From the NCBI GenBank assembly GCA_044352465.1, contig JBILDU010000001.1, forward strand, positions 84,211 to 148,210: a stretch of 64,000 nt of DNA, written 5' to 3'. Origin of the DNA: Bdellovibrionota bacterium (GTDB taxonomy: Bacteria; Bdellovibrionota_C; UBA2361). The notes below the pieces were generated by a model, which ran no database searches, was not told the DNA's origin, and saw only the letters and a program-made list of their open reading frames with translations. Shown one piece after another: positions 2,930-52,000 of this stretch (position 1 is the first letter of the stretch; each line of letters begins with the position of its first letter). The translations under genes were made by a program, and so were the position numbers.

Positions 2930-4453
2930 TCATGGTGGGCTGACGACGTTGCGACCGAAGTGGTCCCGTTCGCACGCAGTGCGGTGCAGGTATCGCAGAA
3001 CCGCTTCGACCGACCGCTCGAGATCCCCCGAGGTGTCGAGCGTATACCAATGCTCCGGCTGCGGCGGAGCTGTGTACTGCCGTTCGACCACCCCACGGTG
3101 AGCGTTTGAAGCATCGTTGGTGCGGTGACACACCCTTTGTAGCGCCACTTCTTTGGGCACAACACACCAGATTCCGCAAAAGGGGAGACCGTAATCCAAC
3201 GCTACCTGCGCGCTCATTTCACGTTGATACCGTTCTCGATGCACCCCATCGAGCACGATCACCCCACCTCGCGGTAACGCATGGCGGGCTCGTTCACTGA
3301 GCCCCCGGTAGACCGCCTGTGAAACAGCCTCGGTATAGGCCGATTCGGGCGCGGTTTCGAGTGGTCTTAAGCCGAGAATATGCTTCCGCACCACATCCGT
3401 GCGCACGACGATCCCACCGAGTCGGGTAGCGATCGCCCGAGCGAGGGTCGTTTTGCCGCTCCCCGAGAGCCCCCCGATAGCGATAATTCGTGACGGGGGG
3501 TGGGTAAGGGATTCGCTCGCTGTGTCGAGGTATCGATCGACTAACGTATGATCCTCGGCGTCAGCTCCCGCGATAAGATGTATCTTTGCCCGAATGAGGG
3601 CTCGATGTGCGCTGTAGAGGGAGAGCAGGGGAAGGCCGGCGAAATCGTCGCTCTCCTCAAGGTAGAGATTGATCGCCAGGGTCGCAAGCTCACGGAGGCC
3701 GTGCGCGCTCAGGTCCATCGTGAGAAATCCGATATCCGACCAGACATCTCCGCTTCCGAGTTCGGTGCTAAACTCGATACCGTCGAACGGCGTCGGTTCC
3801 TTATCGAGAAAGGTAATATTGTTGAGGTGAAGGTCGCCATGAATCGCCCGGACATGGGTCGTGCGGCGTGACTCGATGAGTGCGTGGTGGCGCTCGAGCT
3901 CGTATTCGAGTCGACCGGTAAGATCTTCGATGAGACGAGCGCGGTGGTGTCTCGGAATCTCCGCGATATTTTGGAGGATCTGTTGCCGAATCGTGGCGAA
4001 ATTACCCCATTCGGGGCGAATATCGGCGAGACGGTGGAAAGCTGCGACCCGGCATATGAGGGCGCCGATATCGTTGGGGGTGAGCGCTCGCCGAATGGCG
4101 CGCTTACTCCAAAGATCCTCATCGGAAAAGCGGCGCATCTTGAGTCCGTATTCGACGATCTCACCTCGCCCTTCGATATTATACTCGCCGCCCTCGAGTC
4201 CGATCGCGATGATACCACCGTAGAGCGTTGGAGCGTAACGTCGATTCAGCTCTAGTTCCCGTTCGCACATCGCCTGACGGACGGAGCGGGAGCGGAAATC
4301 GAGAAAGGGAAGGCGGACCGCTTTTTTGAACTTATAAGCGGTGTCGGCGGCTAAAAATATGTCTGAGATGTGGGTTTCGATATGGCGGACCCCCGTTACT
4401 CCCGGCCCATAGCTGTGGGGGGTAAGAAGAAAGCGTTTAACCTCCGAATCCAT
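2930..4453 (-). CDS. bifunctional aminoglycoside-phosphotransferase-like kinase fused to a P-loop (AAA_33-type) kinase domain
   Basis: N-terminal APH/choline-kinase-like motifs (IHGDLHLNNI...D). C-terminal Walker A GLSGSGKTTLA followed by a kinase-like domain. Confidence 0.7.
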   Translation of the reverse strand: MDSEVKRFLLTPHSYGPGVTGVRHIETHISDIFLAADTAYKFKKAVRLPFLDFRSRSVRQAMCERELELNRRYAPTLYGGIIAIGLEGGEYNIEGRGEIVEYGLKMRRFSDEDLWSKRAIRRALTPNDIGALICRVAAFHRLADIRPEWGNFATIRQQILQNIAEIPRHHRARLIEDLTGRLEYELERHHALIESRRTTHVRAIHGDLHLNNITFLDKEPTPFDGIEFSTELGSGDVWSDIGFLTMDLSAHGLRELATLAINLYLEESDDFAGLPLLSLYSAHRALIRAKIHLIAGADAEDHTLVDRYLDTASESLTHPPSRIIAIGGLSGSGKTTLARAIATRLGGIVVRTDVVRKHILGLRPLETAPESAYTEAVSQAVYRGLSERARHALPRGGVIVLDGVHRERYQREMSAQVALDYGLPFCGIWCVVPKEVALQRVCHRTNDASNAHRGVVERQYTAPPQPEHWYTLDTSGDLERSVEAVLRYLHRTACERDHFGRNVVSPP

Positions 4454-4769
4454 CGCTAAAATATCGCAGTCGTTCGTCTTTTACGGTACCGGGACGATCA
4501 TACCCCTACAGCAAACTGAACCGAGTGCCCCAACCGAAGGGGGGCTTCCCCCAAGAGTAGGTTTGGGGGGGCGGAGTAGTCGTGCAATGAAAAATTTCAG
4601 CGGTTGTGTTATGATTCGGGGATGGCGAAGTGCGGGGGGATTTCAAAAATGCCTTCGCGACGCTCCATAAACAGGCAGCACAAACGCCGCTGGTGTTTGG
4701 AGCGATTCATACCGAGGCCCAGGTAGGCGGTTCGGGTGACCACTGGAGCATCAACAAGAGATAATCCGT

Positions 4770-5510
4770 ATGCACGTTCTTTGCCTCCACGGAAATTTCG
4801 GTGCCCCGGAGGATTGGGATGCTCTCACGGCTACATTGGCGCGGGGGGTTAAAGGAGCCACGTTCGAGGCGCCCAATCTATGGGCGCTTGACCCGGCTGA
4901 GCCAATTGAAGAGCTTGCTCACCGCATCGTGACCGCAAAGGGGGCTGGAAGGCAGGTCTTCGTGATGGGGTATTCGCTTGGGGGCCGCTTGGCGCTGGAG
5001 CTTTTAGCCCGGCGGGAAACGCCGCTCGATGGAGCGATACTCTGCTCAGTCAATCCTGGGCTTAGTGAACCCGCTGTCAGACGCGATCGACTTGCGAGCG
5101 ATGCGCGCTGGGCCGATAAAGTGGCGGATCTCGCGAACCCGTGGCGAAATGTTGTTACTGAGTGGAATGGACAAGCCGTCTTCGCTGGCTCAGCTCCCCG
5201 TCCCAGTGTTTCCTTTGCCTCCGCCGAGCAAGAACGAAAGGTGCGGAGTGCTATCGCGCGAGGCTTTCGAGAGTGGTCGCTCGGTGCCTTGCCCTCTCGG
5301 TGGTCAACCCTTGAGAAAGTGCGATGTCCGGTACTTTGTCTTGCGGGTGAGCATGATACAAAGTTTCGGTTGCTCCTCGATACTATCGAACGTTTTCCCA
5401 ACCCCCGAATCGTTTGTGGTGTTGTCCCAGGGGCGGGACATCGGGTAATACTCGACAATCCCGAGGCTTGTGCCCTCCGCGCCGCGGTTTTTTTGACGCG
5501 CCATGAATAG
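4770..5510 (+). CDS. alpha/beta-hydrolase, possible MenH (SHCHC synthase)
   Basis: 246 aa. The nucleophile elbow GYSLGGR matches the MenH-type motif. A catalytic His lies near the C-terminus (GAGHRV). It sits about 6 kb from menF/menD, so the MenH assignment is an inference. Confidence 0.5.
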   Translation: MHVLCLHGNFGAPEDWDALTATLARGVKGATFEAPNLWALDPAEPIEELAHRIVTAKGAGRQVFVMGYSLGGRLALELLARRETPLDGAILCSVNPGLSEPAVRRDRLASDARWADKVADLANPWRNVVTEWNGQAVFAGSAPRPSVSFASAEQERKVRSAIARGFREWSLGALPSRWSTLEKVRCPVLCLAGEHDTKFRLLLDTIERFPNPRIVCGVVPGAGHRVILDNPEACALRAAVFLTRHE

Positions 5511-13982: not shown

Positions 13983-14002
13983 ACCGATGATTCCATCCTT
14001 TT

Positions 14003-14253
14003 TGAGGGCCGGATTCTATCTAGCCGAAGCGCCGCAGGTGGTTCAATCGATCTGGAGGGCCGGATTCTATCCGGCCGAGTAGCGCCATTGGTGATTCGAG
14101 CGCGGCTCGACAGAGTCGAGCCCTCCACACGGTTGCGGTGATTCGATCATATTGGAGGGCCGGACTCTGTCCGGCCGAGTAGCGCCACTGGTGATTCGAG
14201 CGCGGCTCGACGGAGTCGAGCCCTCCACAGGCCGCCTGGGGTGATTTGATCAC
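14003..14253 (+). repeat. structured ~100-bp tandem repeat (2.5 copies), REP/MITE-like
   Basis: Unit TGGAGGGCCGGATTCTATCCGGCCGAGTAGCGCCATTGGTGATTCGAGCGCGGCTCGACAGAGTCGAGCCCTCCACA. Each unit has two internal hairpins (GCCGGA...TCCGGC and GGCTCGAC...GTCGAGCC) flanked by GGAGGG/CCCTCC. Full copies at 14053-14152 and 14153-14253, plus a partial copy at 14003-14052. Confidence 0.85.
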
Positions 14254-14326
14254 GGCTGAACTGAATCTCGCTCCCCAAACAATGACGTTGCCGGTCGCGT
14301 GATAATCGAGTACTCCGGTAGTTACT

Positions 14327-15376
14327 ATGGAGCAGCACAGATCGCCTAGCGCACCGCCGAAGCTCTCTCCTGGGGATAAGGTCGCCATACTTTCCCCCTC
14401 TTTTTGCGCTCCGGCGGTGTGGCCCCATGTTCACGAGCTCGGACTAAAGAGGCTCCGTGAACGTTTCAGCCTTGAGCCGGTTGAGTATCCGACTACACGA
14501 AAATTCGGAGCCGCCCCCGCCGAGCGTGCAGCGGATCTCGTTGCGGCGTTTGAGTCCCCCGAGATTAAGGCGGTTTTTGCCACGATCGGCGGAGACGACC
14601 AGGTCGTCTGGATAAAGGATCTCCCCGCGGAGCCTTTTCGTCGAAATCCGAAGCCGTTCTTCGGCTACAGCGATAACACCCATTTCATGAACTTCTTGTG
14701 GCTAAACGGCGTGCCCTCGTTTTACGGTGGCGCGATCTTCACCGAGTTCGCGGCGTTCGGTGGCATGGACGACTTTACCGTAGAGTATCTGCGCCACGCC
14801 CTCTTTGGGGGTGGCGCGGTGGCGCTCAAGAGCAGCGCGACCTGCAACGATATCGATCGAGACTGGAGCGACCAAAGCCTTATCGAGGTAAAGCCTGAGT
14901 ACGAACCGAACTCGGGGTGGCTCTGGGACGGAGACGGCATCGCCGAGGGAACCACCTGGGGTGGCTGTCTTGAGTCGGTGGACGAGCTCTTACGCCACGG
15001 AACCGCGATTCCAAGCCTTACCGACTTTGAAGAGATCATCTTGCTCCTTGAGACATCGGAGGAGCTCCCCTCAGCACCGTATGTGAATCGAGTGATGAGA
15101 GCGCTTGGGGAGCGAGGGATCCTCGGTCGTATACGGGGTCTTCTCGTCGGCCGACCGAAAGGATGGAGCTTCGATCAACCGTTATCGGCTCCGGCGAAAG
15201 CCGCGTACCGAAAGACACAACATGAGGTATTTGTGCGTGGCGTTCGTTCCTACAACGCCGCGGCACCGATAGTTCAGAACCTCGACTTCGGGCACACAGC
15301 GCCGCAGATCTGTATTCCTTTTGGCGGCCGGTGCGTGATCGACGGCTCTTTACGAGAGATAGAAGTCCAATTTTAG
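14327..15376 (+). CDS. LD-carboxypeptidase (peptidase S66, LdcA/MccF-like)
   Basis: 349 aa. Catalytic Ser motif FFGYSDNTHF. C-terminal His region and overall S66 layout. Confidence 0.7.
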   Translation: MEQHRSPSAPPKLSPGDKVAILSPSFCAPAVWPHVHELGLKRLRERFSLEPVEYPTTRKFGAAPAERAADLVAAFESPEIKAVFATIGGDDQVVWIKDLPAEPFRRNPKPFFGYSDNTHFMNFLWLNGVPSFYGGAIFTEFAAFGGMDDFTVEYLRHALFGGGAVALKSSATCNDIDRDWSDQSLIEVKPEYEPNSGWLWDGDGIAEGTTWGGCLESVDELLRHGTAIPSLTDFEEIILLLETSEELPSAPYVNRVMRALGERGILGRIRGLLVGRPKGWSFDQPLSAPAKAAYRKTQHEVFVRGVRSYNAAAPIVQNLDFGHTAPQICIPFGGRCVIDGSLREIEVQF

Positions 15377-15499
15377 GATCCCGATCTCAAATTTGTCGTA
15401 TCGACTCTCAGCGAACAGCCACTGGCCCCGCTCGCTTGGGGCGATTACTCTGCCATAAAATAAGAATTGATGTATCGAATAATCAGTGCATTAGACCGT

Positions 15500-15871
15500 T
15501 TAATCAGCGGACACAGCTTTTGCATTTTTGAATGCCTGCTCACATCGTACGGTACATCTGAGAAAAATCGCTTCGAAATATGATCCTTCCTCAATCAGGC
15601 AATCCCTTAACTGAGCGCACCAGTATCCACACTGAACGCAGCTCAGGATGTCTTTCTGCTTTTCGCAGAGCGCGACCGCACCTTCCGCATTCGCCCTTGC
15701 GAGTGCACATTGGTCGCTTCCCCTAGAAGCGAAATCGGGATCTGCCTGCTCCAAAATTACTGTGAGCTCTGCGAGCTCGGAATCAAGCTGCTCAATCGGA
15801 GATGCGAGCACGCTTCCAGGGATACTTGAGACGAGGCAGAGGATTGTCGTAAAAATGTAAGCAAAACGCAT
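15500..15871 (-). CDS. small secreted cysteine-rich protein
   Basis: Signal peptide MRFAYIFTTILCLVSSIPGSVLA. The mature ~100 aa has 7 Cys, including CVQCGYWC. The local GC is clearly lower than in the surroundings. Confidence 0.5.
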   Translation of the reverse strand: MRFAYIFTTILCLVSSIPGSVLASPIEQLDSELAELTVILEQADPDFASRGSDQCALARANAEGAVALCEKQKDILSCVQCGYWCAQLRDCLIEEGSYFEAIFLRCTVRCEQAFKNAKAVSAD

Positions 15872-16660
15872 ATATAAACCCCACATGGTACCGTTAGCCG
15901 AAGCTGATTAAGACCTTAGCAACTGGTCAGCTTTCAGAATAAAGTTATGCGAGGCAAGACCGCTGCTGTGCGCTAATGGTGCGCGATTTTGCTTAGTGGT
16001 TTCCGCTTGGTCTGGGTCAGCTACGTCAGAGCACCTCTTTTCCCGCGTGGCTGGGCTAGTGTGGATGTATTACGAATCGGCTTATTGGAGGATGTACCAT
16101 CTCATCGGTACCGTGCAGCAGGCCCATTTCGATTACCCAGAATAAGTGATGAGCAAAAGCGGCAGCCTTATGAGATGCTATGGCGTTCCTCGCCATCGAG
16201 CTTTCATTAAAACTATTTGTAGGGAGGCGGGACAATTTTGTCCCAACCACGCGGTCGTCGGAGTCTGGTCGACCGCGAACAGATGTAACGCCTCCGCGGG
16301 GGCGTGGACGACCGGGAGCGGGGAGCGCTAAGCAGTTACAGGGGCAAATAATTGCGCGCGGGCGAAGACGTAGCGCGGAGCGAACCGAACCGTATTCAGG
16401 GAACCTCCCTTATTGACTCAGCGTTGTTCGCTTTGCTCCTATTCCCCAACGGTAAGGAGTTTACCGTTGAGGAGTCACGCCACGTGGGGCGAAGGAGTAC
16501 GCGTCGAGCTGATACTCAAGGTCAGATGTGAATTGGACAGGGGGCTCGGGGAAGGTCCCTCGGCCGATTCGATACGCGAGCCGCTTTGCTTTTGCAGTTG
16601 CCCGGCTCTCCCTGGCCAGGCTAATGATTCTTTCAGAAGATGAAGAAGTTTCCGAGAGAA

Positions 16661-18748
16661 TCACCAGAGCCCCTCCAACGGAGCTCCAGTCAAGCGATTC
16701 ACGACGCGAGGGCGGATCTTGAGCTTTGACTCAATCGAGCTTAGGAGGTGCCCAACAGGTGTCTGTGCCCAAGAGTCAACGGGACGTTGAATCACCGCGA
16801 CGACGGGGGTCACTGCATCAAATCGAGCCGCCTCGGCGTGACGATAGAGCTGGGTGCCCACGATGTTGTCTCCGAGAGAATGATGCTCCTTGTAGTTTTT
16901 ACTGACGAGGGTGTCGAGGGTACGTTTCACCTCGATTCCGAGGGTCTCCCCGGCCTTACTGCGAGCGATAATATCGTACTCAAAGCCATGCCTAATCGGT
17001 GAGCTGAGGCCGATAATCGTGTATTCACTCTTACTCAGGGCGACAGCCGTCGCCGCTTCGATGGGGAAGCCGGAGAAATGTTGAGTATCGTCTCCTTTCG
17101 CCCGTGCGCGGAGAACGACGAGGCTGTTGTCGAGAAGCTTTTCGATCCCTTTCACGTTGAGGCGGTCAAGATGTACGAGGTTTTCCAGGAAAAGAATCAC
17201 CTTCTCATCGCCAGCTGTATCGTATTGACGTGGTGCAACAAGAGCGATCTCACGTAGCTTTGCGATCGGATACCGTTCCGAACTAAGTTCGTTGAGGGCA
17301 TGCGCAAGGCGGCGAACGTGCCCCTCAATATCCGGGCATCGAGCCTGCCGGGCGAATGTGTGAAGAATCGATTGGATCTCGGGAGCGCGTATACCGTCTG
17401 TGCCTTCGAGCCCCTCCATTCCGTGGCGCACAGCCGCGCGTATTCCCTGATTCGGCTCACGGGTGAGCTCCATCGAGATCTGGAGAGAACGGCCGAGTAT
17501 CTTCTTGTATCCGGGCTCGGACTGTGGAATCGGTACCAAGGCTCCTTCGGCTGCACGGCGAATGACCTCGGCACCTTCCGCGGTGGTAACGAGGAATTGC
17601 TCGATGGGGACATCCCAGCGTGCGAGGGTGGCGAGACGTTTTAGGTGAGAGATTTTTTCGGGTCCACGTTTCAGTGGTTCCGCAAGCCGGTGTTCGATCC
17701 ATGTGGATGGATACATGAGCAATGTAAGCTCGACAACCGTCTCGTGAAGTTCGTTCATGTCACTAGCCGTGACGGTACATTTTTCGGGGATGTTGCACGC
17801 AAGATTGCGAGTTACCGTTGAGAGCCGTGGAAGGAGCTCCCTCCCGAGCTGGAGCTCCTGAGCGGCGACGGATGTGAGATATCCTCGCTCGGTGAGCTTC
17901 TCTAGCCACGACTCGGTTGTGGTAAGTCCGTATGCACGGAGGCGATCCATTTGTCCTAGGATAGCGGTGATTGAAGCGAAGGACGCTTCGGTAGCTTCGC
18001 TGAGATGTCGACACCCTTGCCGGAGTTCATTCAGGGTCTTGAGGTGGTCTCGCCCCTCGGGCCCAACAAAGTCCTGAACGAGTGGTACGATGAGTCGGTC
18101 AGCGCTGTTTTTCTCGACGTCCTCGAGGAGCTCAGAGAACTGCAGGTGTTCCTCAAGTGTCGTAAGCTCGAGACGTATAAATTGCTCGCACATACCGAGG
18201 AGCTCGGGGCCGGAGTCGCGAATGGGCTGAACGATTTGCTCACGGAGCGCAGTGACTTCAGAGCGAACCTCGGCCGCGGCAGGTCCAGATACCGCCTGAA
18301 ACGGTTGAGCCGCGATCAACTCGGGTTGTGGCGACTCGGGGCTCGATTCACGCGGGGTGAGGTTTTCATTTGAGAGGGGATTCGAGGGGAAGGCATCGAA
18401 GATCAGTTGGGTGATAACCCGGTATTCCGCGGTTCGGTCACTCGTACGAAAGGTATCCGGTAGTATCCCAGGATTTCGATTCGCGCGACGCTCGAAGATA
18501 TGAAGCTTGTGTTCTACCTCGGCGCGGAATGTAGCGCTGCCAAGCTCCGTATCGCCTCTCGCAGCCTCAAAAGCGGCGTAGACCGGGTCCGATCTCAGGA
18601 ATCGCTCGGTTTGTGCAAGGCCAACGAGAGGTGTCCGGCCCCGGAGTTCCTGATTCGGCGCCCTGGCGAGACGTTCAACGGCGTCGTACGCCGCTTCGCG
18701 CTGAGCCGGCGAAAGGCGTAGATCGATCGCTGTCTCGCTTTTGATCAT
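16661..18748 (-). CDS. large hypothetical protein with C-terminal PD-(D/E)xK nuclease-like domain
   Basis: 695 aa, mostly helical. The C-terminus carries E (PIEAATAVAL), D (FEYDIIA) and ExK (GIEVKR) with canonical restriction-endonuclease-fold spacing. No N-terminal motif was recognised. Confidence 0.55.
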   Translation of the reverse strand: MIKSETAIDLRLSPAQREAAYDAVERLARAPNQELRGRTPLVGLAQTERFLRSDPVYAAFEAARGDTELGSATFRAEVEHKLHIFERRANRNPGILPDTFRTSDRTAEYRVITQLIFDAFPSNPLSNENLTPRESSPESPQPELIAAQPFQAVSGPAAAEVRSEVTALREQIVQPIRDSGPELLGMCEQFIRLELTTLEEHLQFSELLEDVEKNSADRLIVPLVQDFVGPEGRDHLKTLNELRQGCRHLSEATEASFASITAILGQMDRLRAYGLTTTESWLEKLTERGYLTSVAAQELQLGRELLPRLSTVTRNLACNIPEKCTVTASDMNELHETVVELTLLMYPSTWIEHRLAEPLKRGPEKISHLKRLATLARWDVPIEQFLVTTAEGAEVIRRAAEGALVPIPQSEPGYKKILGRSLQISMELTREPNQGIRAAVRHGMEGLEGTDGIRAPEIQSILHTFARQARCPDIEGHVRRLAHALNELSSERYPIAKLREIALVAPRQYDTAGDEKVILFLENLVHLDRLNVKGIEKLLDNSLVVLRARAKGDDTQHFSGFPIEAATAVALSKSEYTIIGLSSPIRHGFEYDIIARSKAGETLGIEVKRTLDTLVSKNYKEHHSLGDNIVGTQLYRHAEAARFDAVTPVVAVIQRPVDSWAQTPVGHLLSSIESKLKIRPRVVNRLTGAPLEGLW

Positions 18749-25488: not shown

Positions 25489-25980
25489 ATGTCGGTTCAG
25501 TGGTTCAAGATCGTGTTCGTTTCCATCTTGGTCGTCTTCCTCGCAGCGTGTCAGACCGCGGGTGATCGCACCGTGTTCAAGGCGGAGAAGACGGCGTCCT
25601 ACCAGTCGCTTGAGCGCGAGCTCAACGACGAGGTGAAGGGGCTCACGGCTGAGTACGATGCTACCAAGGACACCGCTCTGCGCGACCAAATTCGCGCTGA
25701 TCGGACCGCGGCCGCTCGTGACTTGGACGAAGTGCGTCTGCGTGCCAACACGGAGAAGCGGGTGTACCGGGAGTCGGAACGCAATGCCGCTCGGGCTGAA
25801 CGCAACAAGTTCAACCGTCGGCAGGGCAACCAGATCCAGGTCCGCGTCGATCCTTTCGGTTGGATGGAGGACGACGAGGACGAGAAGTACATCGATCGTG
25901 ATGGAACCCTCGGTCGTGACGATGACATCCGCGCTCGCATGGCGGAACGCGCAGATCGTCGTCGTCAGCGTCAGGGGTAA
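25489..25980 (+). CDS. charged lipoprotein
   Basis: Signal peptide with lipobox VFLAAC, then a highly charged Arg/Glu/Asp-rich helical region. Confidence 0.5.
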   Translation: MSVQWFKIVFVSILVVFLAACQTAGDRTVFKAEKTASYQSLERELNDEVKGLTAEYDATKDTALRDQIRADRTAAARDLDEVRLRANTEKRVYRESERNAARAERNKFNRRQGNQIQVRVDPFGWMEDDEDEKYIDRDGTLGRDDDIRARMAERADRRRQRQG

Positions 25981-26177
25981 CACGATAGGAGGTAAAAGCG
26001 AATAACGTCAAAAGCGTTGTTTGTGGGCTTGCATCGGTCGAGCACTGTATTTGTACAGTGCCCCCGCACTGCTGCAACTACTGTTCTCGATCGATGTGAG
26101 CTCCCTCCTTTTCTCTTTTTCCCCGCTATTTTGCTGAACGTCCGAAACTTCCGTTCAAATGCGAGCTCGTTTCCCCT

Positions 26178-26330
26178 GTGGCGCTCGTCGGCCGGACAGA
26201 GTCCGGCCCTCCAATGCTTTTGAATCACCGCAATCGTGTGGAGGGCTCGACTCTGTCGAGCCGCGCTTGAATCACCTGTGGTGCTCGTCGGCTGGATAGA
26301 GTCCGGCCCGCTAATGATTGCTCGCATCAT
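26178..26330 (-). repeat. inverted-orientation copy (~1.5 units) of the 100-bp structured repeat seen at 14003-14253
   Basis: The reverse complement of 26178-26330 aligns with the repeat unit at 14053-14253. Examples: GGCCGGACAGAGTCCGGCCCTCCAAT and GGAGGGCTCGACTCTGTCGAGCCGCGCTTGAATCACC. Confidence 0.8.
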
Positions 26331-26357
26331 CGGTTGTGTCCGCCGTCCGTGTTTCGA

Positions 26358-29300
26358 TCAATACGAATAACTTTGCCCCTCCTGGGCTCGTCCCGCGATG
26401 AGGTCGTCGATCGATTCGAGGGCAAAGGTGTTGATGTAGATGACCTCACCGATCCTTTCTAAGATTCCGGTCGCGAGGAGGCACGAGCTTGAAAGAACGA
26501 TGCGACGATACTTTTCAAAAACGTCAGGGCGGATAATAAGGTTCGTAATCCCCGTTTCATCTTCAAGGGTAATAAACACTACCCCTTTCGCGGTGCCGGG
26601 GCGTTGACGGATAATCGCGACCCCCGCAACCGATACGGTGCGCTCACGGGGGAGGCGAGTGAGTTTCTTGAGCGCCCCTGCGGTAAAGACGTTTCTTTTC
26701 GTAAGCTCGTGACGAATAAATCCGATCGGGTGCCCTTTTAAGGAAAGTCCACTTGCGGCGTAGTCGGCGAACATCTCTTGTTGCGCTGTGGTGGTAGGGA
26801 GAAACGCTTTCGCCGGTGTGTTGTTTTGGTAAGGCAGGGTCGCTCTATCAACGGGAAGCGGGATCTCGGGCAGCGCTTTGATGGCCCAGAGCGCCTCTCG
26901 ACGGTTAAGCCCGAACGAGCTGAACGCATCACCCCGGGCGAGTGTCTGTAGCGTTGAGCGATAGGGGCGCTCCGAAGATTCGCTATAGTCGCTCGTTACG
27001 GCGAGCCAAAACTCTTCGATGGTTTTTGACGCTGGATGACGCTCATAAGAGCTCACCAGAAGCTCAGCCTCTCTATGAGGAAGTCCTTTAAAAAGTCTTA
27101 AACCCAATCGCACTGCGGGACGTTTCGAGGTTTCATCTTCCTCGAGCCGCGCGTCCCACCCGCTATAGGCGATATCCGCCTCTCGCACACACACCCCGTG
27201 CTCTTGGGCGTCACGCACTATTTGGGCTGGGGCATAAAAGCCCATCGGTTGGCTATTAAGGAGCGCTGCGGCGAATTCGGCAGGATAGTGATGTTTAATC
27301 CACGCCGAGGCGTAGACGAGATGAGCGAACGATGCCGCGTGTGATTCCGGAAAGCCGTATTCGCTAAACCCCTTAATCTGCTCCATACACGTTTCAGCGA
27401 ACTCAACCGAGTAGCCGTTTCGGGTCATGCCGGCTACGATCTTTTGTTTAAACGTTGTAATCACCTCTTTATTGCGTTTCCACGCCGCCATCGCGCGGCG
27501 AAGCTTCTCCGCCTCACCGGGTGAAAAGTCGGCGAGCACGATCGCAAGCCGCATCGCTTGTTCTTGAAAAAGGGGGACGCCGAGAGTTTTTCCTAAGATC
27601 GCTTTTACCTGTTCGTCGGGGAAGTGAACCTTCTCTTTGCCGCTCCGGCGCTTTAAATACGGATGCACCATATTGCCGTGAATGGGTCCGGGGCGGACGA
27701 TCGCGACCTCGATAACAAGGTCATAAAAACACCGCGGACGAAGCCGCGGAAGCATCGACATCTGGGCGCGCGACTCGATCTGAAAGACGCCAACGGTGTC
27801 GGCGCGGCAGATCATATCGTAAACCGATGAGTCGTTTTGAGGGATCGAATGAAGTTGAAGGGAAGCTTTATTCTCTTCTTGTCGCCGGTTATTGACCAAC
27901 TCAAGCGCTTTGCGGATACAGGTCAGCATCCCAAGCGCTAGAACGTCGATTTTTAACATTCCGAGGGCGTCGATATCGTCTTTATCCCATTCGATGATAG
28001 TGCGATCCGCCATGCCGGAGTTTCGGATCGGTACCGTTTCTGAGAGCGGCTCTTGAGAGATGATAAAGCCCCCCACATGTTGTGAGAGATGGCGGGGAAA
28101 CCCTAAAAGCTCGTGACTAAGCCGGATCGCGTTTTGAATCGTTGTATCGTCTGGGTCTAGTCCAAGCGCTTTAAGATCCTCCGCCGCGATAATACAATCG
28201 GTCCACCGGTGAACGAGTTTTGCAAGTTTATCGACGATCTCGAGCGAAAGGCCTAACGCTTTGCCGACTTCGCGGATAGCGCTTCGATACCGATAGGTGA
28301 TGACCGCACAGGTAAGCCCCGCCCGATTTCGCCCGTATTTTGAGTATATATATTGAATCACCTCTTCTCTACGCTCGTGCTCAAAGTCGATATCGATATC
28401 GGGTGGTTCGTTCCGTTCTTTGCTGACAAAGCGAGCGAAGAGAAGGTCGATGGTCGCGGGGTCGACCGAGGTTATCCCTAAACAGAAACAAACTACTGAG
28501 TTCGCCGCGGCTCCGCGGCCCTGGCACAAGATCCCCCGACTTCGGGCAAAGCGGACGATATCGTGGCAGGTAAGGAAATACTTTTCGTACTGAAGGTCCT
28601 TAATAAGGTGGAGCTCCTCGCGGATCGCTTGCTCGACTTTTGGAGGAATGCCGTTTGGGTATCGCTCCTCCGCCCCCCCCCAGGTCTTTGTGGTAAGGTA
28701 TGTATGGACATCGTGGCCCGCTGGGCAGATCTCGGTCGGGTATTCGTAGCGCAGCTCATCGAGCGAAAACCCGGCGGTCATCTCAGTAAGTTCGAGCGTT
28801 CTATGGAGAGCGGGGCGATCGTCTCTAAAAAGGCGCTCCATTTCTTCGACCGGTTTTAGATACCGCTCCCCGTTTGGAAAAAGTTTAAACCCGGCGGTGT
28901 GAACGGTGCAGCCTGCGCGGATAGCGGTGAGGACGTCGTGAAGGGGGCGGCGTGCTCGGGAATGGTAGTAGGGATCGTTCGTAGCGATAAGTGGAAGTGT
29001 GAGCGTCGTCGCCGTAGCGCGGGTCATCTCGAGCGCGCGGGGACAAAAAAAGTCATAATTTTTCGTGAGCGCCATCGACCACACGGCGCGATCGGTTGCT
29101 GCATTCAGAAGCGCACCGACGATCGGAACGATGTCGAGCGGTGGAGCGCTGCTATCGCGTACGGTGGGGAGAGGCGGGGGGATCACGATGACGGCGAGAC
29201 CTTGATGGTAGTTTAAAAAGTCGGTCGTGGTGAGTAAGCACCGGGCACCGGGAAGCCGTGTTTTTCCGAGTGTTAACAGGGAGCAGAGGTTCCCATATCC

Positions 29301-29672
29301 TTTGCGGTTCAATGGGAATACGGCGAGATCAAGGGTTTGAAATTGCGATTCGATGGGGGCCTCGAGATCGACCGTTACGGGGGGGGCTTCGGCTGGGATA
29401 AGGGTAAGCCGGGCCCCAGGGCGGTACGGCATGCCGATGTCACGTGCCGCGGTATGGGCGCGTACGATTCCAGCGAGGGTTGTGTGATCGGCGAGGCCGA
29501 GCGCGGCATAGCCCAATTCTGCAGCGGTGGCGACGTATTCTTCCGGGTGGCTCGCACCACGTAGGAAAGAGAAGTTCGTCGTTATCAGAAACTCGGCGTA
29601 GCTCGGTCGTTTCGGCGCGCGCCGCACGGGGAGGATCGGAGGTTTTATCTTATCGTAGGGCTTATCGGGCAT
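26358..29672 (-). CDS. dnaE2: error-prone DNA polymerase III alpha subunit
   Basis: 1104 aa. N-terminal PHP domain begins PSYAEFLITTNFSFLRGASHPEE, typical of DnaE2/ImuC. Sits downstream of imuA-imuB. Confidence 0.88.
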   Translation of the reverse strand: MPDKPYDKIKPPILPVRRAPKRPSYAEFLITTNFSFLRGASHPEEYVATAAELGYAALGLADHTTLAGIVRAHTAARDIGMPYRPGARLTLIPAEAPPVTVDLEAPIESQFQTLDLAVFPLNRKGYGNLCSLLTLGKTRLPGARCLLTTTDFLNYHQGLAVIVIPPPLPTVRDSSAPPLDIVPIVGALLNAATDRAVWSMALTKNYDFFCPRALEMTRATATTLTLPLIATNDPYYHSRARRPLHDVLTAIRAGCTVHTAGFKLFPNGERYLKPVEEMERLFRDDRPALHRTLELTEMTAGFSLDELRYEYPTEICPAGHDVHTYLTTKTWGGAEERYPNGIPPKVEQAIREELHLIKDLQYEKYFLTCHDIVRFARSRGILCQGRGAAANSVVCFCLGITSVDPATIDLLFARFVSKERNEPPDIDIDFEHERREEVIQYIYSKYGRNRAGLTCAVITYRYRSAIREVGKALGLSLEIVDKLAKLVHRWTDCIIAAEDLKALGLDPDDTTIQNAIRLSHELLGFPRHLSQHVGGFIISQEPLSETVPIRNSGMADRTIIEWDKDDIDALGMLKIDVLALGMLTCIRKALELVNNRRQEENKASLQLHSIPQNDSSVYDMICRADTVGVFQIESRAQMSMLPRLRPRCFYDLVIEVAIVRPGPIHGNMVHPYLKRRSGKEKVHFPDEQVKAILGKTLGVPLFQEQAMRLAIVLADFSPGEAEKLRRAMAAWKRNKEVITTFKQKIVAGMTRNGYSVEFAETCMEQIKGFSEYGFPESHAASFAHLVYASAWIKHHYPAEFAAALLNSQPMGFYAPAQIVRDAQEHGVCVREADIAYSGWDARLEEDETSKRPAVRLGLRLFKGLPHREAELLVSSYERHPASKTIEEFWLAVTSDYSESSERPYRSTLQTLARGDAFSSFGLNRREALWAIKALPEIPLPVDRATLPYQNNTPAKAFLPTTTAQQEMFADYAASGLSLKGHPIGFIRHELTKRNVFTAGALKKLTRLPRERTVSVAGVAIIRQRPGTAKGVVFITLEDETGITNLIIRPDVFEKYRRIVLSSSCLLATGILERIGEVIYINTFALESIDDLIAGRAQEGQSYSY

Positions 29673-29707
29673 AGGTAGTTAGCAGAGAATAGAGTGAGAA
29701 AAAATTC

Positions 29708-31363
29708 TCATACCCACACCCCGTGGACGAACCATTCGTGGGTGTGGTTATTCCGAAATACCCAGAGCCACGCTCCGTTTTCGGTCTGAACTTTAAAGTA
29801 ATCGCGCTCTTCCGCGGGGAGAGCGACATCCCCATGCCACCATTCCGGAGCGATCCGCTCTGGTCCGGTACCGTAGGTAATCTTTCCTCCACTGTGTCGC
29901 CAATCGATCCAGGAGGGCGGTTTGTCGGGGAGCATCGCGATAACTTTAGCTCGCTCAGGAGGCGAAAGAAGGTGCGGTGGTCGATCGACAATGAGGCTTT
30001 TGGTGGGGGCGCTCGGGAGCGGTTTCTTGCCGTCCGCGCGGATCGGCTCGAACGAAAAGCTGCGCTCGGGGATGTACGATGGGTGAAAAACCGCTCGCCG
30101 TACCCGCTCCTCTCCAAGTCCTACGACGAAGGTGTTCAACAGTTCGTTCCGCGCCCCTTCAATAATCGTCGTTTCGGGATCATCAAAGAAATCGTTTTGG
30201 GTATGGAGCGCCCGCTCGATATTATCGGCGGCAACGACGATGAGTTCCGCCCCCTCTTCAAACCGCATCGCTTCGATAGTCGGTGTGACGATAGAAGCGA
30301 GGTGGGAAAACTTTGTGGTGCTGCTGGTCAGGTGGATAGTTCGAAGGAGCGTCTTCTTGGTGCGCTCAAGGGAGCGTCCCTCGAGATAGACAAAAAAAGT
30401 ACGCGCTGTGTAACCACTCGTAGCGAGCCGCTTCAGAAGTTTTTCGATAAGTTTTATAATCGCGCGTGTCAGAGCGGCGTGGTGAGTCAGTGGGACATCG
30501 AAGTGTGCTGTCGTTCGAAAAATAGTCGGCAGAGGGAGTGCTCGCAGCGATTCTTCAACCCGGCCGAGTGCTTGATCGAGGCGGTTGAGAAGAAGGTGTC
30601 CGAAGCGAACGGTGAGGGTACGCGCGGGGATCTTTAAGAGTTCGCCGATTCGGGTTACTCCGACTTCATGGAGCGCTGTGCGTGTCGTGAGAGGGAGTCG
30701 TAACGCTTCAATCGGTAGAAGCGCGAGTGAGGTGCGTAGACTCGCTGTGTCGTTCACCTGCACGAGCGATTGCCCACCAAATCGTGCGAGTGCCCACGCC
30801 CCCCCGAGGGTAGGTGCGACTGCAGTGAATGCTGTGACTCCGCTGTGCGTGAAGCGATGCAGTAGTTTCCTTAAGAGCTCCTCAGTTTCGCCGTGGAGCC
30901 GCTCAGTGCCGGTAAGGTCAACGATGACTCCCCAGCGGAGGGAATCGGCGAAAAGATCGCTTTCGCGCCCCGTTTTCTTTGTTTCGAGGATCGGTGAGTG
31001 CAGTTCGGGGTCGAGCCCGACCAGGGGACTTAATCGCCCCATCCACCGGGCGATTTCAGTGAGGGCTTTGACGTCATCGCGAGGATGAAACGGGTGCACG
31101 ACGATCGCCGGGAGAAGCGCGCGCGCGAGGGCGAGATCCATCCCGGTCTGCACCCCAGCGCGGGCGCACTCCGTGCAGAACCGTTTGACGACGACGTGAT
31201 TCGCGTCGCTTGAGACGAGGGCGTATGGACCGGGGCGCTCAGGCGCGGCGCCGGTCTCGCGCGCTCTCTCCCGAAGTCGACGACGTGCTACGTCGATCGG
31301 CCACAGAGGGAGATAGATGGAGAGGTACGTTTTGGTCGTCATCGCTGCCGCACAGCTCCACAC
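29708..31363 (-). CDS. imuB: ImuB, Y-family-polymerase-like mutagenesis protein
   Basis: 551 aa. N-terminal YLSIYLPLWPIDV... matches the catalytically inactive UmuC/DinB-like fold. The likely start is the internal Met at 31342, which would reduce the imuA overlap. Confidence 0.7.
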   Translation of the reverse strand: MWSCAAAMTTKTYLSIYLPLWPIDVARRRLRERARETGAAPERPGPYALVSSDANHVVVKRFCTECARAGVQTGMDLALARALLPAIVVHPFHPRDDVKALTEIARWMGRLSPLVGLDPELHSPILETKKTGRESDLFADSLRWGVIVDLTGTERLHGETEELLRKLLHRFTHSGVTAFTAVAPTLGGAWALARFGGQSLVQVNDTASLRTSLALLPIEALRLPLTTRTALHEVGVTRIGELLKIPARTLTVRFGHLLLNRLDQALGRVEESLRALPLPTIFRTTAHFDVPLTHHAALTRAIIKLIEKLLKRLATSGYTARTFFVYLEGRSLERTKKTLLRTIHLTSSTTKFSHLASIVTPTIEAMRFEEGAELIVVAADNIERALHTQNDFFDDPETTIIEGARNELLNTFVVGLGEERVRRAVFHPSYIPERSFSFEPIRADGKKPLPSAPTKSLIVDRPPHLLSPPERAKVIAMLPDKPPSWIDWRHSGGKITYGTGPERIAPEWWHGDVALPAEERDYFKVQTENGAWLWVFRNNHTHEWFVHGVWV

Positions 31364-39532: not shown

Positions 39533-39954
39533 TTGTTTGGTAGCGAGGCGGCGAACTCCTCCTTGCCGAGCTGTCCGGTTGGATGAGCTTGATATCGCGC
39601 AGCGCGCGCATTCTATTCTCTGTAGCAGCCCTCGGAAGCTCAACGATAGCCCGTGAGGGGAAAGGGTTCCTATGTGACACCCTGCTTGCGTGTCGATAGC
39701 CGATAACAAAAATCAGCTTTCGTCGTATGGTTTCTCTTCATAGCCATTAAAGTTTGTATGTTCGCGGCGAAGGGGGGTCTGGGGCGGTGACTGGAATCCG
39801 TATCTCAAGCTCTACGGGGTCACGGGTGAATAAAGACCGTACTCTGGTCGGCTATGGGCGCATCAACGCCCCGTCTCTCTTAGGTATTAGCGAGGAATCC
39901 CTTTGTCCTCGTTTTCTGGAAAATAACTCTCCGGTGTGCTAAGGTCGGCGCAGA

Positions 39955-40050
39955 ACCTTGGGGGTGTCGGTGGGCAAGAAAGGCTCAGCCGGCTGAGATT
40001 ATACCCTTTGAACCTGACGCGGGTAATGCCGCCGCAGGAAAGAGGCGTCG
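39955..40050 (+). promoter_or_regulatory. TPP (thiamine pyrophosphate) riboswitch
   Basis: Contains the conserved THI-box elements GGGGTG..., CTGAGA, TACCCTTTGAACCTGA and GGTAATGCC...GGAA. Sits directly upstream of thiS-thiC. Confidence 0.9.
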
Positions 40051-40127
40051 CGGCGTGACTTATTCGAGTCCCTTCGCACTCATGCGTGAGTATCTGCTCA
40101 CACCCTCCCCGCAAGTTTGGGGTTTCG

Positions 40128-49086: not shown

Positions 49087-52000
49087 TTGGAGTGGTGCAT
49101 GTTCGGCAACGCGTTCGGCAGTCAGAGCTCTCCGGTAAATCTCCACGGTATCGAATTATCTTTCTTGAAAGGTGCGTGGTGCTCCAGCTTCGCTGTGTTT
49201 TTCGGTCTCTTTTTTAGTGGGGCTGTCGAGGCCTCCCCCCCCATCTCTGGTACCCCAACAGCGCCGAGCTGCAGCAGTGCTGGGTTTGATCTCGCGCGGC
49301 GATATTGCTGTTGTAAGCCCCGTCATATCGGGTTTGCGGTAGCTGAAAATCTCCTAGCGGAAGGGGTTTTTTCAGAGGCGACTACGCTCGCACCTCCGAG
49401 AGGTGTGTCGAAACCGATCGCGTTTCTATGCCGGAATGCCAATCCGTGGGAGAGCCCCACAGCGCCGCTCAATCCAGCGACAAGCGCGTCATCGTTGAAT
49501 GCTGCCGGAGCGCTCTGCCGTTGCGATCCAGCAACCGCTAATCGCTACTGTGATGGGCCGACTCCTACTCCCACGCCGTCGCCAACCCCAACACGAACGC
49601 CGACACCGACGCCGACAAGCACCCCGACGCCCACCCCCACACCAATAGTGACTCTCTCTCCATCGCCCGAACCGGAGGTGACCGTGACCCCACCGCCGGT
49701 GGTGACTATCGATCCTGGAAATGATCAAAGCCCCAATTGCGAGATATCGGGGCGTGTTCCGACGCCGCTCCCACGGCCGGCTCTTCGCCTCACGGAGCGC
49801 AGGCTCCGGGCGTGGAGCGATGTAGGAAACCGCTCGGACATCGAGTCGTCCGCAGAGCCGGAACGCTCAGCAGTCGAGGAATGGGGAGCTTGGGGGGGGC
49901 CGGGACGGGTCGTGATGGTTGGGCGGTACGATAGTAACTATAACGGGCTGCCCGACTTTTTAGACGGGATAGAGGGAATTGAGAGCCTCGATCGGATCCG
50001 ACAACAGAATGGCATTCCGCGCAGCTCGACGAGCCGTCACTTCGTGATGATCGAGGTTGAGATCGAGGGGGGAGCACCGGCAGCCTACTACGTGCCGGAT
50101 CGGATGGCGCCGGGTGGGGAGCGGATTGAGTCGCCGAGCTTACGCATCGACTACAGTGGTTCGCCCCTTCTCCCGGACCCAATCGGGTGTCCTTTTTTTC
50201 GGGGGCTTCAGGCCGCGTGGGGGTCCTCGGGTGTGACGTGGGGGGGGTACGATGAGCGTGTTGCCTCGACCCTCGCAGACTGTGGACTATCCTCCGGTGG
50301 TTGGCGGGTTTGGACTAAAAACGGACAGTATCTTCGAGATGCGCGCTCAGTCCCCGCTGGTGGAGATTACGTCCCCTCAGGGATCGAGATCCCTCTCCAC
50401 AATCTTGATACCTCGGGGAATCGGGTCCGATTTTACGTTGAAGCTACCCCGCTGGGAGAGTTAGCTCGCGATTTCGATATCACGCTTCGTTATGGGCGAG
50501 TGATATCGGGAGACACGTTACCGCGGGAGTCGGTATCACACGAGCGGGTTAGCCTTCTACCGGTGGATCTTATCTATCAGGATGCGCGGACACACGGGCC
50601 GATCTGGGTCTCGCCTGAAGACGGATCCCGCGACCCTGAGGGTGAGGTGAGACTAGCACTCGACCGAACTTTCGCGCCGCGACTCCCGGCCCTCTCACCG
50701 TCATGGAGCGCTATCGATGCCGATTCGGGTGCATTCCTCGTTCAAGGAGCGCTTACCGATGGAGCTTCGCTTATCAGTATCGCGCTGCAAGAGCGTTTGG
50801 AGGGGCGTTACCAAGGGGGGGGCAATCCACTTCGCCGTTACGCAACTTGGGCGGATGACAATGGGAACCAGCACTGTTACACCCCGTTTGAAGATAATGT
50901 TTTCCTTGGTATTCGCCGTAAGGGTGGTCCGCTTCAAGGCGAGGAGCAGCCGGCTAATCTGCCGAATGTGTACGGTGGCTTCCATCCGCCGATCGGACCA
51001 CATGGGGAGCTTAATCTCTTACCAAGGATGCCGATGCCGAGCGACTCCGCGACCGCAGAGGAGTGGGGATACTCGACGAGGATCAATCTGGGGAGTGGTA
51101 TCCGACCCCAACGGTACCCCGTTTTGAATGCGATCGGGGGATATTACCTCCCACCCAATAACTTTATCTCGGGTCTCGCGCCGGGTGATAACGACTCTCG
51201 ATACGGTGGTGGTTCGATCGTGCTTGAGCGCTCGGTCAATCAACCGGAGGAGGTTGCGCCGATGGAAGTGGTGCTCTACCGACGGGTAGGGAGCCGAGTC
51301 GTTGTATTAGAGGTTCAGCCGTTCTATCTTCGGCGGCCTCCGGTGGTGTTGGTGCACGGCATGAACGGTGATGGTCGGGATTACTGGCCGTGGGATCTGT
51401 GGGCCGAGCGTAATCCCACGCATCTAGACGGCTTACCAACCCGGATCTATCGCGCTGACTACAGTTTCTCGGCAGGGCTCGGCTATACCGAGAATTTTAC
51501 CGCGGTGCCAAAAGCGATTCAGCAAGCGCTTGTGGAGTACCGTTGGGCTTACGACAACACCTTTGTTCCACCCCCTGATGCAACCGGACCTGTTGAGCCT
51601 CCCTTCGATCCGCCGGCGGTGATGCCCCATCCTTCTTTCGGATTTTATGGGGACTCACACCGGGTCTATGCGTGGCACCGACCGGAGCGTGCGTTTAAGG
51701 GGATCAACTACGCAGCCACCCGGGTTGATGTTGTAGCCCATAGTATGGGGGGACAACTGGTTCGCACCTATGTCTCGAATCTTGGTGATAACACCGGTAT
51801 GACCGGTGTAACACGTGCCCATCCCGATACCCGCCGAAAGCCGAGAGGGGCTGTGGATTTCTCGATGCCGGCAGCGTTAATCCCAGGCACCGGAGTGCCT
51901 GGCATTCCGGCGCGGTTCCAGAACCTACGACTGCAGATCCCACCGCGGATTGACCGAAGCGGGGATAGTTGGACTTTCTGGTACGCCGCGGATCTTGAGG

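Follow-up and report, generated by a model that had tools for sequence, protein, structure and literature searches.

Two intergenic arrays of GGAG-tagged hairpins in a Bdellovibrionota-affiliated genome as probable REP/BIME elements of a RAYT system

Genomic setting of the repeats

The window (the whole stretch of DNA that was analysed, 64 kb in length) carries two clusters of short palindromic repeats. Site 1 (14003-14253) has menD on one side and an S66 LD-carboxypeptidase gene on the other, both encoded on the + strand, and at site 2 (26178-26330) a 163-aa ORF and dnaE2 converge with their 3' ends towards the repeats. Both sites fall between called genes, in agreement with the original prediction that they are intergenic and with the extragenic location expected of REPs. 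The first repeat of site 1 begins 21 nt past the menD stop codon (13982) and is preceded by the linker-like sequence GATGATTCCATC, and the doublet at site 2, read on the minus strand, starts ~45 nt downstream of the dnaE2 stop codon (26358). The site 2 array sits directly at the 3' end of the dnaE2 operon, which is a cassette of the SOS-mutagenesis type (26358-31363 on the minus strand, and beyond). Its dnaE2 gene encodes an error-prone polymerase of 1104 aa, an ORF of 477-551 aa before dnaE2 has weak impB/mucB/samB (ImuB-like) matches, and a further ORF of 335 aa has no Pfam match.

The window organism is known only from metagenomes, where its sequences include JGI and ENA contigs of 620 kb and 177 kb, respectively, as well as Logan contigs and a single assembly at NCBI. 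The nearest named relatives of its GlyRS and MenD proteins are found in Bdellovibrionales, Bdellovibrio, "Deltaproteobacteria" and Pseudomonadota MAGs, which places the host roughly near the Bdellovibrionota. The window was extended on its left (10 kb) and on its right (7.6 kb), and no further repeat copy was found in the added flanks. The ~82 kb of this genome therefore hold two repeat sites with 8 REPs, and REPs elsewhere typically exceed 100 copies per genome.

Anatomy of the repeat units

A search of the 64-kb window with the 23-nt motif GGAGGGCYSGAYTCYRTCSRGCC, allowing up to three mismatches, returned 8 matches where 0.04 were expected, a number that was equalled in 0 of 100 shuffles, and all of the matches are confined to the two sites. 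At site 1 the matches start at 14003 (+, 2 mismatches), 14054 (+), 14104 (-), 14154 (+), and 14204 (-), and at site 2 they start at 26190 (-), 26240 (+), and 26290 (-, 2 mismatches). The REPs are spaced 50-51 nt apart and mostly alternate in orientation (+ + - + - at site 1 and - + - at site 2). The repeat search recovered two 93-nt copies with 89% identity and a 100-nt period within site 1, as well as a 148-nt inverted match of 86% identity between site 1 and site 2. These results bear out the family of ~100-bp repeats, with an inverted copy at the second site, that had been described from the sequence at the outset. TRF (score 30) did not list the site 1 array that the motif and repeat searches detected. 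Elsewhere in the window, at 49570-49643, there is a 12-nt tandem repeat, CCCACCCCGACA, with 6.2 copies and 69% matches that may encode a Pro/Thr-rich stretch.

In a single REP a 5' head, (T/G)GGAG, leads into a stem of 8 perfect base pairs that is closed by a 3-nt loop, and two subtypes can be distinguished. Subtype A has the stem GGCCGGAY/RTCCGGCC (core CCGGAY) and subtype B has the stem GGCTCGAC/GTCGAGCC (core CTCGAC). The tetranucleotide GGAG directly precedes the stem in every intact copy in the window, and it is also found at this position in the variants from MAGs and in those that flank RAYT genes. A 5'-foot tetranucleotide of the kind that defines REPs is thus present, but its sequence is GGAG and not the canonical GT[AG]G or CGTC.

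The 100-bp unit is made up of two ~50-nt half-units in which the hairpin and tag are mutually inverted. An A REP and an inverted B REP, joined by the 27-nt linker GAGTAGCGCCAYTGGTGATTCGAGCGC, form a 75-nt doublet, TGGAGGGC...GCCCTCCA, and successive doublets are chained with a period of 100 nt via a second (outer) linker that again contains GGTGATTCGA. At site 1 two doublets come after a degenerate solo A REP; at site 2 the minus strand reads as one doublet and then a solo A REP, which has a decayed inner linker and no B partner. The A-to-B orientation relative to the upstream gene is consequently the same at both arrays, which may be chance as there are only two sites. The regular spacing, the alternating REPs and the conserved linkers are those of a BIME; the linkers are conserved both in the window and in the MAG JBJOHD, where doublets are again surrounded by the outer-linker sequences ATTCGA... 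and CAG..CACCAC. When the doublets were used to build a covariance model, it identified three full doublets and two solo half-units in the 64-kb window and no copy beyond the two known sites. The coordinates of the individual features are included in Table 1.

Table 1. Features of the two repeat sites (window coordinates)
Feature	Position	Strand	Evidence or content
Site 1, solo degenerate A REP TGAGGGCCGGATTCTATCTAGCC	14003..14025	+	Motif with 2 mismatches; model match 14002-14046, 32 bits, E 1.5e-5
Site 1, REP doublet 1	14053..14127	+	0 mismatches in both REPs; model 97.3 bits, E 3.9e-21
Doublet 1, A REP	14054-14076	+	GGAG tag and hairpin GGCCGGAT-TCT-ATCCGGCC
Doublet 1, inner linker	between REPs 14054-14076 and 14104-14126		Conserved 27 nt, GAGTAGCGCCATTGGTGATTCGAGCGC
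Doublet 1, inverted B REP	14104-14126	-	Hairpin GGCTCGAC-AGA-GTCGAGCC and CTCC
Outer linker CACGGTTGCGGTGATTCGATCATAT	14128..14152	+	Carries GGTGATTCGA, the motif preceding every REP on that strand
Site 1, REP doublet 2	14153..14227	+	A REP 14154-14176, inverted B REP 14204-14226; model 95.9 bits, E 8.6e-21
Trailing outer-linker copy CAGGCCGCCTGGGGTGATTTGATCAC, end of array with no REP after it	14228..14253	+	Sequence reading
Site 2, REP doublet 3, inverted relative to site 1	26239..26313	-	Model 82.6 bits, E 1.3e-17; inverted repeat of 148 nt, 86%
Doublet 3, parts	26290-26312 (degenerate A REP); 26240-26262 (B REP)	- (A REP); + (B REP)	
Site 2, solo A REP	26160..26213 (REP 26190-26212)	-	Exact motif; model 44.8 bits, E 1.3e-8
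Strain-variable segment holding the entire site 2 array	26111..26361	.	Comparison with L203 and L205

Hairpin folding and covariation

Each REP contains a short GC-rich palindrome in the form of a 19-nt perfect hairpin. When individual REPs are folded as single-stranded DNA the 5-nt head is unpaired and the hairpin has a free energy of -9.0 to -9.5 kcal/mol (z -3 to -4), and the three-way fold of doublet 2 has a free energy of -23.3 kcal/mol (z -3.3). Folded as RNA, the array region gives a z of -5.1 relative to shuffles. The two internal stem-loops that had been proposed for each unit do exist and fold as predicted, and their stems covary.

Covariation was examined in 206 unique public instances, collected with a search pattern that also permitted non-complementary combinations at three stem pairs. 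Stem pair 9-19 was Watson-Crick in 206/206 instances (C-G in 172 and G-C in 34), pair 12-16 in 205/206, and pair 8-20 in 200/206. Changes of the G-U type in the stems (T-G, 4) barely exceed C-A changes (3). When 16 doublets, taken from the window and from the MAG JBJOHD, were aligned, 92.6% of the positions in the local hairpins and the outer GGAG/CTCC helix were paired, and slid controls gave 21-51%. The same alignment contains 13 double-change cells, a number matched by 0/500 shuffles; within-genome copies often share ancestry, so these covariation counts do not represent independent events. A long hairpin of the REPIN type, in which the A REP pairs with the B REP, was rejected as the conserved structure since two of its positions are unpaired in 15-16 of the 16 doublets and its covariation is not in excess. 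Because the local pairing covaries and the long pairing does not, the individual REP hairpins are the conserved objects and A and B are stable, distinct subtypes.

No Rfam family matched the repeats at the gathering threshold, and the matches obtained with E values up to 10 were meaningless (e.g., mir-4672, 17.9 bits vs a gathering score of 98). The sole Rfam family detected in the window is the TPP riboswitch (RF00059), at 39950-40058 (+), with 59.4 bits vs a gathering score of 54.3 and an E value of 4e-9.

Distribution in other genomes and metagenomes

The motif occurs in at least 160 public stretches overall. A scan of genome representatives returned 44 loci, most of which are from five MAGs labelled Pseudomonadota, Bdellovibrionota, Deltaproteobacteria, Thermodesulfobacteriota, and "uncultured bacterium", and a scan of metagenomes returned at least 120 stretches with the motif. 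Actinobacterial MAGs gave four single matches that appear to be due to chance, and two of these have imperfect stems. A BLAST comparison of the window with the genome-MAG loci (L001-L044) determined that the repeats alone match, with 70-92% identity, and that the flanks are unrelated. The nearest family member is the MAG JBJOHD, with 57 motif instances in 18 loci and ~15 doublets of the window type, which score 65-98 bits on the covariance model and lie in unrelated flanks.

The GC content of the hosts ranges from 51% to 72%, and across this range the tag and stem base, GGAG-GGC...GCC, is kept, in contrast to typical REPs, which are specific to a species. The dominant stem variant differs genome by genome. 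Array periods of 101-109 nt are common, and periods of 78 or 151 nt also occur. L030 5156-6002, in the Bdellovibrionota MAG JBBALZ, holds an array whose period is 109 nt and which has at least 8 units; its second hairpin is decayed (GCGCGCCGGGTTTTGCGCCCTCC), and an N run that interrupts the array suggests an assembly gap within the repeats. A rough count of gene contexts at the public loci gave 28 tandem, 12 convergent, and 2 divergent, but these counts carry little weight because the ORF heuristics are unreliable in high-GC DNA and put even the arrays that flank RAYT genes "inside ORFs".

A RAYT gene linked to the family

All ORFs of the window and of loci L001-L170 were searched with E. coli RayT and an HMM made from three sequences. 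Only two ORFs matched, L090 2174-2695(-) and L064 545-1012(+), and both of these genes, which are on metagenome contigs, have GGAG-headed REP arrays on both sides. They score 83.5 bits (L090) and 84.8 bits (L064) against NCBIfam NF047646, "REP-associated tyrosine transposase" (cut-off 80), and fall slightly under the threshold for Pfam Y1_Tnp. At the level of the family, L090 and L064 therefore have the organisation of a REPtron, a class 2 Y1/HUH RAYT gene flanked by its cognate REPs. A RAYT, the kind of transposase that the original prediction had suggested looking for elsewhere in the genome, is thus present beside family arrays on metagenome contigs. The window and the ~18 kb of added sequence (10 kb left, 7.6 kb right) yielded no RAYT gene.

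A search of the PDB with the clade RAYT returned a single relative, E. coli TnpA_REP (4ER8), with an E value of 1.7e-8. The database search returned 1488 homologues, many of which are named RayT by JGI, and the best 120 of the 1488 are mostly on ~1-kb contigs, as is expected because the bracketing repeats break assemblies. The HUH motif, Y115, N119, W94, Q95, and R104 are conserved in 103 full-length members of the clade, in which the counterpart of E100 is D and the counterpart of H101 is R or T.

Four more RAYT genes of the clade (P0090, P0044, P0098, P0112), none of which was found to come from the samples of the window organism, are flanked by GGGAG-headed hairpins. Their flanks are mostly of a "GA-bulged" type, GGGAG-GGC-GA-GGC-TCCT-GCC-GA-GCC, which occurs together with the perfect-stem type in the arrays of several contigs, so that several subtypes (perfect-stem A, perfect-stem B, and GA-bulged) coexist within one array. 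The commonest REP type beside the RAYT clade, GGGAGGGCGAGGCTCCTGCCGAGCC, is GA-bulged and folds no better than shuffles. Additionally, the stem variants at the RAYT-flanking arrays are CCCGAC and CCGCGC, vs CCGGAY and CTCGAC in the window.

Strain comparison and turnover of the arrays

It was originally suggested that the inverted copies mediate an inversion or mark the boundaries of a mobilised block, and the comparison of assemblies lends support to neither. The arrangement in four long independent assemblies of the same strain (L193-L195, L204) is identical to that of the window at the DNA level, with none rearranged between the two loci, although all of the compared same-strain assemblies are near-clonal and rare inversions could escape. 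A further 48-kb contig, for which gene calls were compared, has the same gene order. The 12-kb interval between the sites has an ordinary composition, which removes the possibility of a compositional island, and it contains ordinary menaquinone genes that are syntenic in a repeat-free relative (L206). The men gene order is kept in L206, a related species whose MenD is 74% identical, and no REP was found in its 13 kb, including the region downstream of menD.

To either side of site 2, the related strains L203 and L205 match the window at 95-97% identity. Both lack window positions 26111-26361 and have in their place 114 nt with one GA-bulged REP, TGGAAGGCGAGAGTCCTCTCGAGCC, so that the difference at site 2 is a replacement rather than a clean insertion. 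The differences among L203, L205, and L206 indicate that the arrays are recent and lineage-specific and that the region 3' of dnaE2 is a recurrent REP site. The REP in these two strains (L203 9344-9367 and L205 ~7900) has a GGAA head and reads GGC-GA-GAG-TCCT-CTC-GA-GCC, with compensatory inner-stem changes relative to the widespread GGC-GA-GGC...GCC-GA-GCC type.

Some other differences between the assemblies were observed. The block of LD-carboxypeptidase, a 128-aa ORF, and a 695-aa ORF downstream of site 1 (14327-18748) is absent from L206, and L205 has an extra PMT_2 glycosyltransferase gene (3245-5338) that is missing in the window. For the region 16661-18748 (-), the ENA and Logan assemblies have a single gene call of 695 aa where the JGI contigs have genes of 429, 122, and 73 aa, which is a gene-calling discrepancy, the sequence being unchanged. 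One Logan contig starts and terminates exactly within the two inverted B REPs, at 14102 and 26264, and it follows that the repeats break short-read assemblies.

Interpretation and alternative explanations

Both clusters are, with good probability, REP/BIME arrays of a REP system whose cognate enzyme is a RAYT. The GGAG family is of the REP/BIME-RAYT kind with a variant tag, as all of the structural criteria fit except the sequence of the tag. The anatomy of the units, the covariation of the stems, the dispersal across genomes, the RAYT genes flanked by arrays, and the gain or loss of an array between close strains are all directly observed. The copies in the window would have been placed by a RAYT of this kind, which the window genome may encode outside the stretch covered.

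Two alternatives treat the arrays as something other than a dispersed family and are readily weighed. The repeats could be a purely local duplication, in which one intergenic segment was copied 12 kb away and tandemly amplified with no wider family behind it, and it is true that the two sites stand alone in ~82 kb of the window genome and are 86% identical over 148 nt. Copies of the motif are, however, found in at least 160 public stretches, and the same doublet occurs ~15 times in another genome (65-98 bits) with unrelated flanks; these matches rule out a purely local duplication and upholds the earlier view of an element family with a conserved structure, and we consider the local origin extremely improbable. 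It is even harder to credit that the arrays are coding. ORFs of 122 aa (14020-14388, minus strand) and 119 aa (25971-26330, minus strand) do span the arrays, the second is called as a gene in some public assemblies (e.g., L195 14785-15144), and the two share a weak similarity (37% over 43 aa) as a repeat protein might. The first ORF has no Pfam match, though, and the similarity is what a palindromic repeat gives; because both ORFs are on the minus strand and the arrays are mutually inverted, they read opposite strands of the unit. Furthermore, close strains lack the array and show no other change, and the ORFs look like repeat artefacts.

The remaining alternatives accept a family and differ on what it is. 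In the first of these each ~75-nt doublet would be a MITE that arose by deletion from a DDE-type IS, is no longer autonomous and depends on a full-length IS for movement in trans, and TGGAGGGC/GCCCTCCA would be its terminal inverted repeats. The inverted sequences do bracket the doublet, which is conserved as a unit in two genomes, and an IS66-family transposase lies just past the right end of the window (TnpB_IS66 and DDE_Tnp_IS66, L202 971-2017, ~5.6-6.6 kb beyond the window's right end and near the end of the 177-kb ENA contig). The ends of IS66 are not known to be related to the GGAG-hairpin motif. A target-site duplication of at least 3 nt was found in 0/16 doublets and no parent IS was seen, so the combination of terminal inverted repeats, target-site duplication, and parent IS that marks a MITE is not present. 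The supposed terminal repeats are systematically different hairpin subtypes, each with internal covariation, solo half-units and head-to-tail arrays with fixed linkers occur, and the enzyme between the arrays is a Y1/HUH RAYT and not a DDE transposase. A MITE is thus very unlikely, and from the "REP/MITE-type" label first given to the repeats we retain the REP half, on account of the dispersal, the covariation, and the RAYT flanks, and discard the other. A somewhat less remote but still unlikely explanation is that the arrays are non-mobile functional RNA: selection would keep them in the menD and dnaE2 3' untranslated regions, where they would stabilise the mRNA or act as attenuators or a small RNA. 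The arrays start 21-45 nt after stop codons in the same A-to-B orientation to the upstream gene, the region folds far better than shuffles (RNA z -5.1), the stems covary, and few copies lie between divergent genes (2 vs 28 tandem and 12 convergent, by the rough count). The same units nevertheless flank RAYT genes and adjoin unrelated genes in many genomes, the size of the array varies between close strains, and Rfam has no match. T-G changes (4) are hardly above C-A changes (3), as under selection that is at the DNA level or strand-symmetric, and a T-run terminator is absent, by which an intrinsic terminator was also rejected. An RNA role is in any case compatible with REP identity and is more an added function than a true rival; in E. 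coli the mRNA role is secondary to REP identity, and a secondary role as an mRNA 3'-end protector is plausible here by analogy. A CRISPR-like reading was rejected since the "spacers" are conserved and the repeats alternate in orientation.

Proposed mechanism and significance

Under the preferred REP/BIME reading, the cognate RAYT would be a relative of E. coli TnpA_REP and, like it, a Y1/HUH nuclease that acts on single-stranded DNA. By analogy, it would recognise the folded hairpin together with the 5' tetranucleotide on single-stranded DNA, such as that at replication forks, and would cut and rejoin at the recognised REP hairpins. Through this cutting and rejoining, REP doublets would be established or multiplied in intergenic DNA, with a preference for positions immediately after genes. 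E. coli REPs are known for the protection of mRNA 3' ends and for protein binding, and a host-level effect of this kind, for example on the 3' ends of the menD and dnaE2 mRNAs, may also be exerted by the window arrays. The SD-like GGAGG and anti-SD-like CCTCC pair might additionally affect the translation or RNA fate of the neighbouring genes. We suggest tentatively, as a possibility that falls somewhat short of even odds, that the GGAG hairpins make up a third REP tag superfamily beside GTAG and CGTC, served by a RAYT clade that is large (at least 1488 homologues), mostly uncultured, and has D and R/T in place of E100/H101.

In this way two odd intergenic structures find a place in a class of element that is well understood, and there is no longer a reason to propose an inversion or mobilisation cassette. 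The repeats also have practical consequences, as they break short-read assemblies of the window organism and provoke spurious gene calls. The REP-RAYT partnership is extended to an uncultured lineage affiliated with the Bdellovibrionota that uses a different guide tetranucleotide, GGAG, and this provides a natural test case for how RAYTs read their tags (GTAG with E100/H101 vs GGAG with D100/R101).

Comparison with known systems

The REPs described in the literature end in GTAG/GT[AG]G, or in CGTC if they are of a second superfamily (PMC3733652, PMC6006769). A text search of PMC3733652 and PMC6006769 found no mention of a GGAG tag, and no GGAG-tagged REP class was found in the REP literature searched, though one may exist elsewhere. 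The stem-loops described here follow the same concept as the GTAG and CGTC palindromic superfamilies (PMC3733652), in which families of small stem-loops from many taxa have one terminal tetranucleotide tag in common, dimerise head to head or tail to tail, and are associated with RAYTs; the tag GGAG differs from both of theirs. A hairpin accompanied by a guide tetranucleotide is also a feature of IS200/IS605 ends (PMC6006769), and the small size and inverted ends resemble those of bacterial MITEs such as Correia and ERIC. Unlike IS200/IS605 elements and MITEs, the family has no internal transposase and no target-site duplication and is organised in tandem arrays.

The REPINs of Pseudomonas fluorescens (PMC3116915, PMC3337134) are likewise inverted REP doublets with a short spacer that are conserved as a unit across genomes, have solo REPs that resemble decayed doublets, and form their own variant population in each genome. 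In contrast to those REPINs, the two arms are different subtypes here, with a central base pair that is swapped in 16/16 doublets, and tandem arrays are prominent. It is because the arms are systematically different subtypes that the long REPIN hairpin is not what is conserved in this family.

The closest parallels are with E. coli, where the REP/BIME elements and RayT (TnpA_REP, YafM; 4ER8) also combine a short GC-rich hairpin with a conserved tetranucleotide at its 5' foot. In the BIME-2 elements of E. coli two REP subtypes (Y and Z2) alternate in orientation with fixed linkers, as A and B do here, and in both systems the REPs are intergenic and often located right after genes. RAYT genes are flanked by their own REP families, often of several subtypes, e.g., Y, Z1, and Z2 in E. 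coli (PMC3733652, PMC6006769, PMC3333891, PMC2817692), and the single Y1/HUH gene flanked by its own REPs corresponds to the E. coli REPtron (PMC3333891, PMC3479197). The clade RAYT aligns to E. coli 4ER8 with the HUH motif, Y115, and N119 conserved. The systems differ in the tag, which is GGAG here vs GTAG in E. coli, in the stem, which is a perfect 8 bp with a 3-nt loop where the E. coli stems are longer and bulged, and in the host, which is an uncultured Bdellovibrionota-affiliated lineage. The residues of E. coli TnpA_REP that contact GTAG, E100 and H101, are D and R/T in the predicted enzymes of the clade.

In RAYT subclasses 2.5 and 2.7, E100 is replaced by D and H101 is sometimes R (PMC6006769), and the E100D and H101R of the clade resemble these subclasses in the two residues. 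The REPs of subclass 2.5 carry GT[AG]G, unlike the GGAG of the family described here. Subclass 2.5 RAYTs (e.g., Stenotrophomonas) are associated with short REPs in which the foot and stem come to 10-13 nt (PMC6006769), and the foot and stem of the GGAG hairpins, at 4 + 8 = 12 nt, are of the same length.
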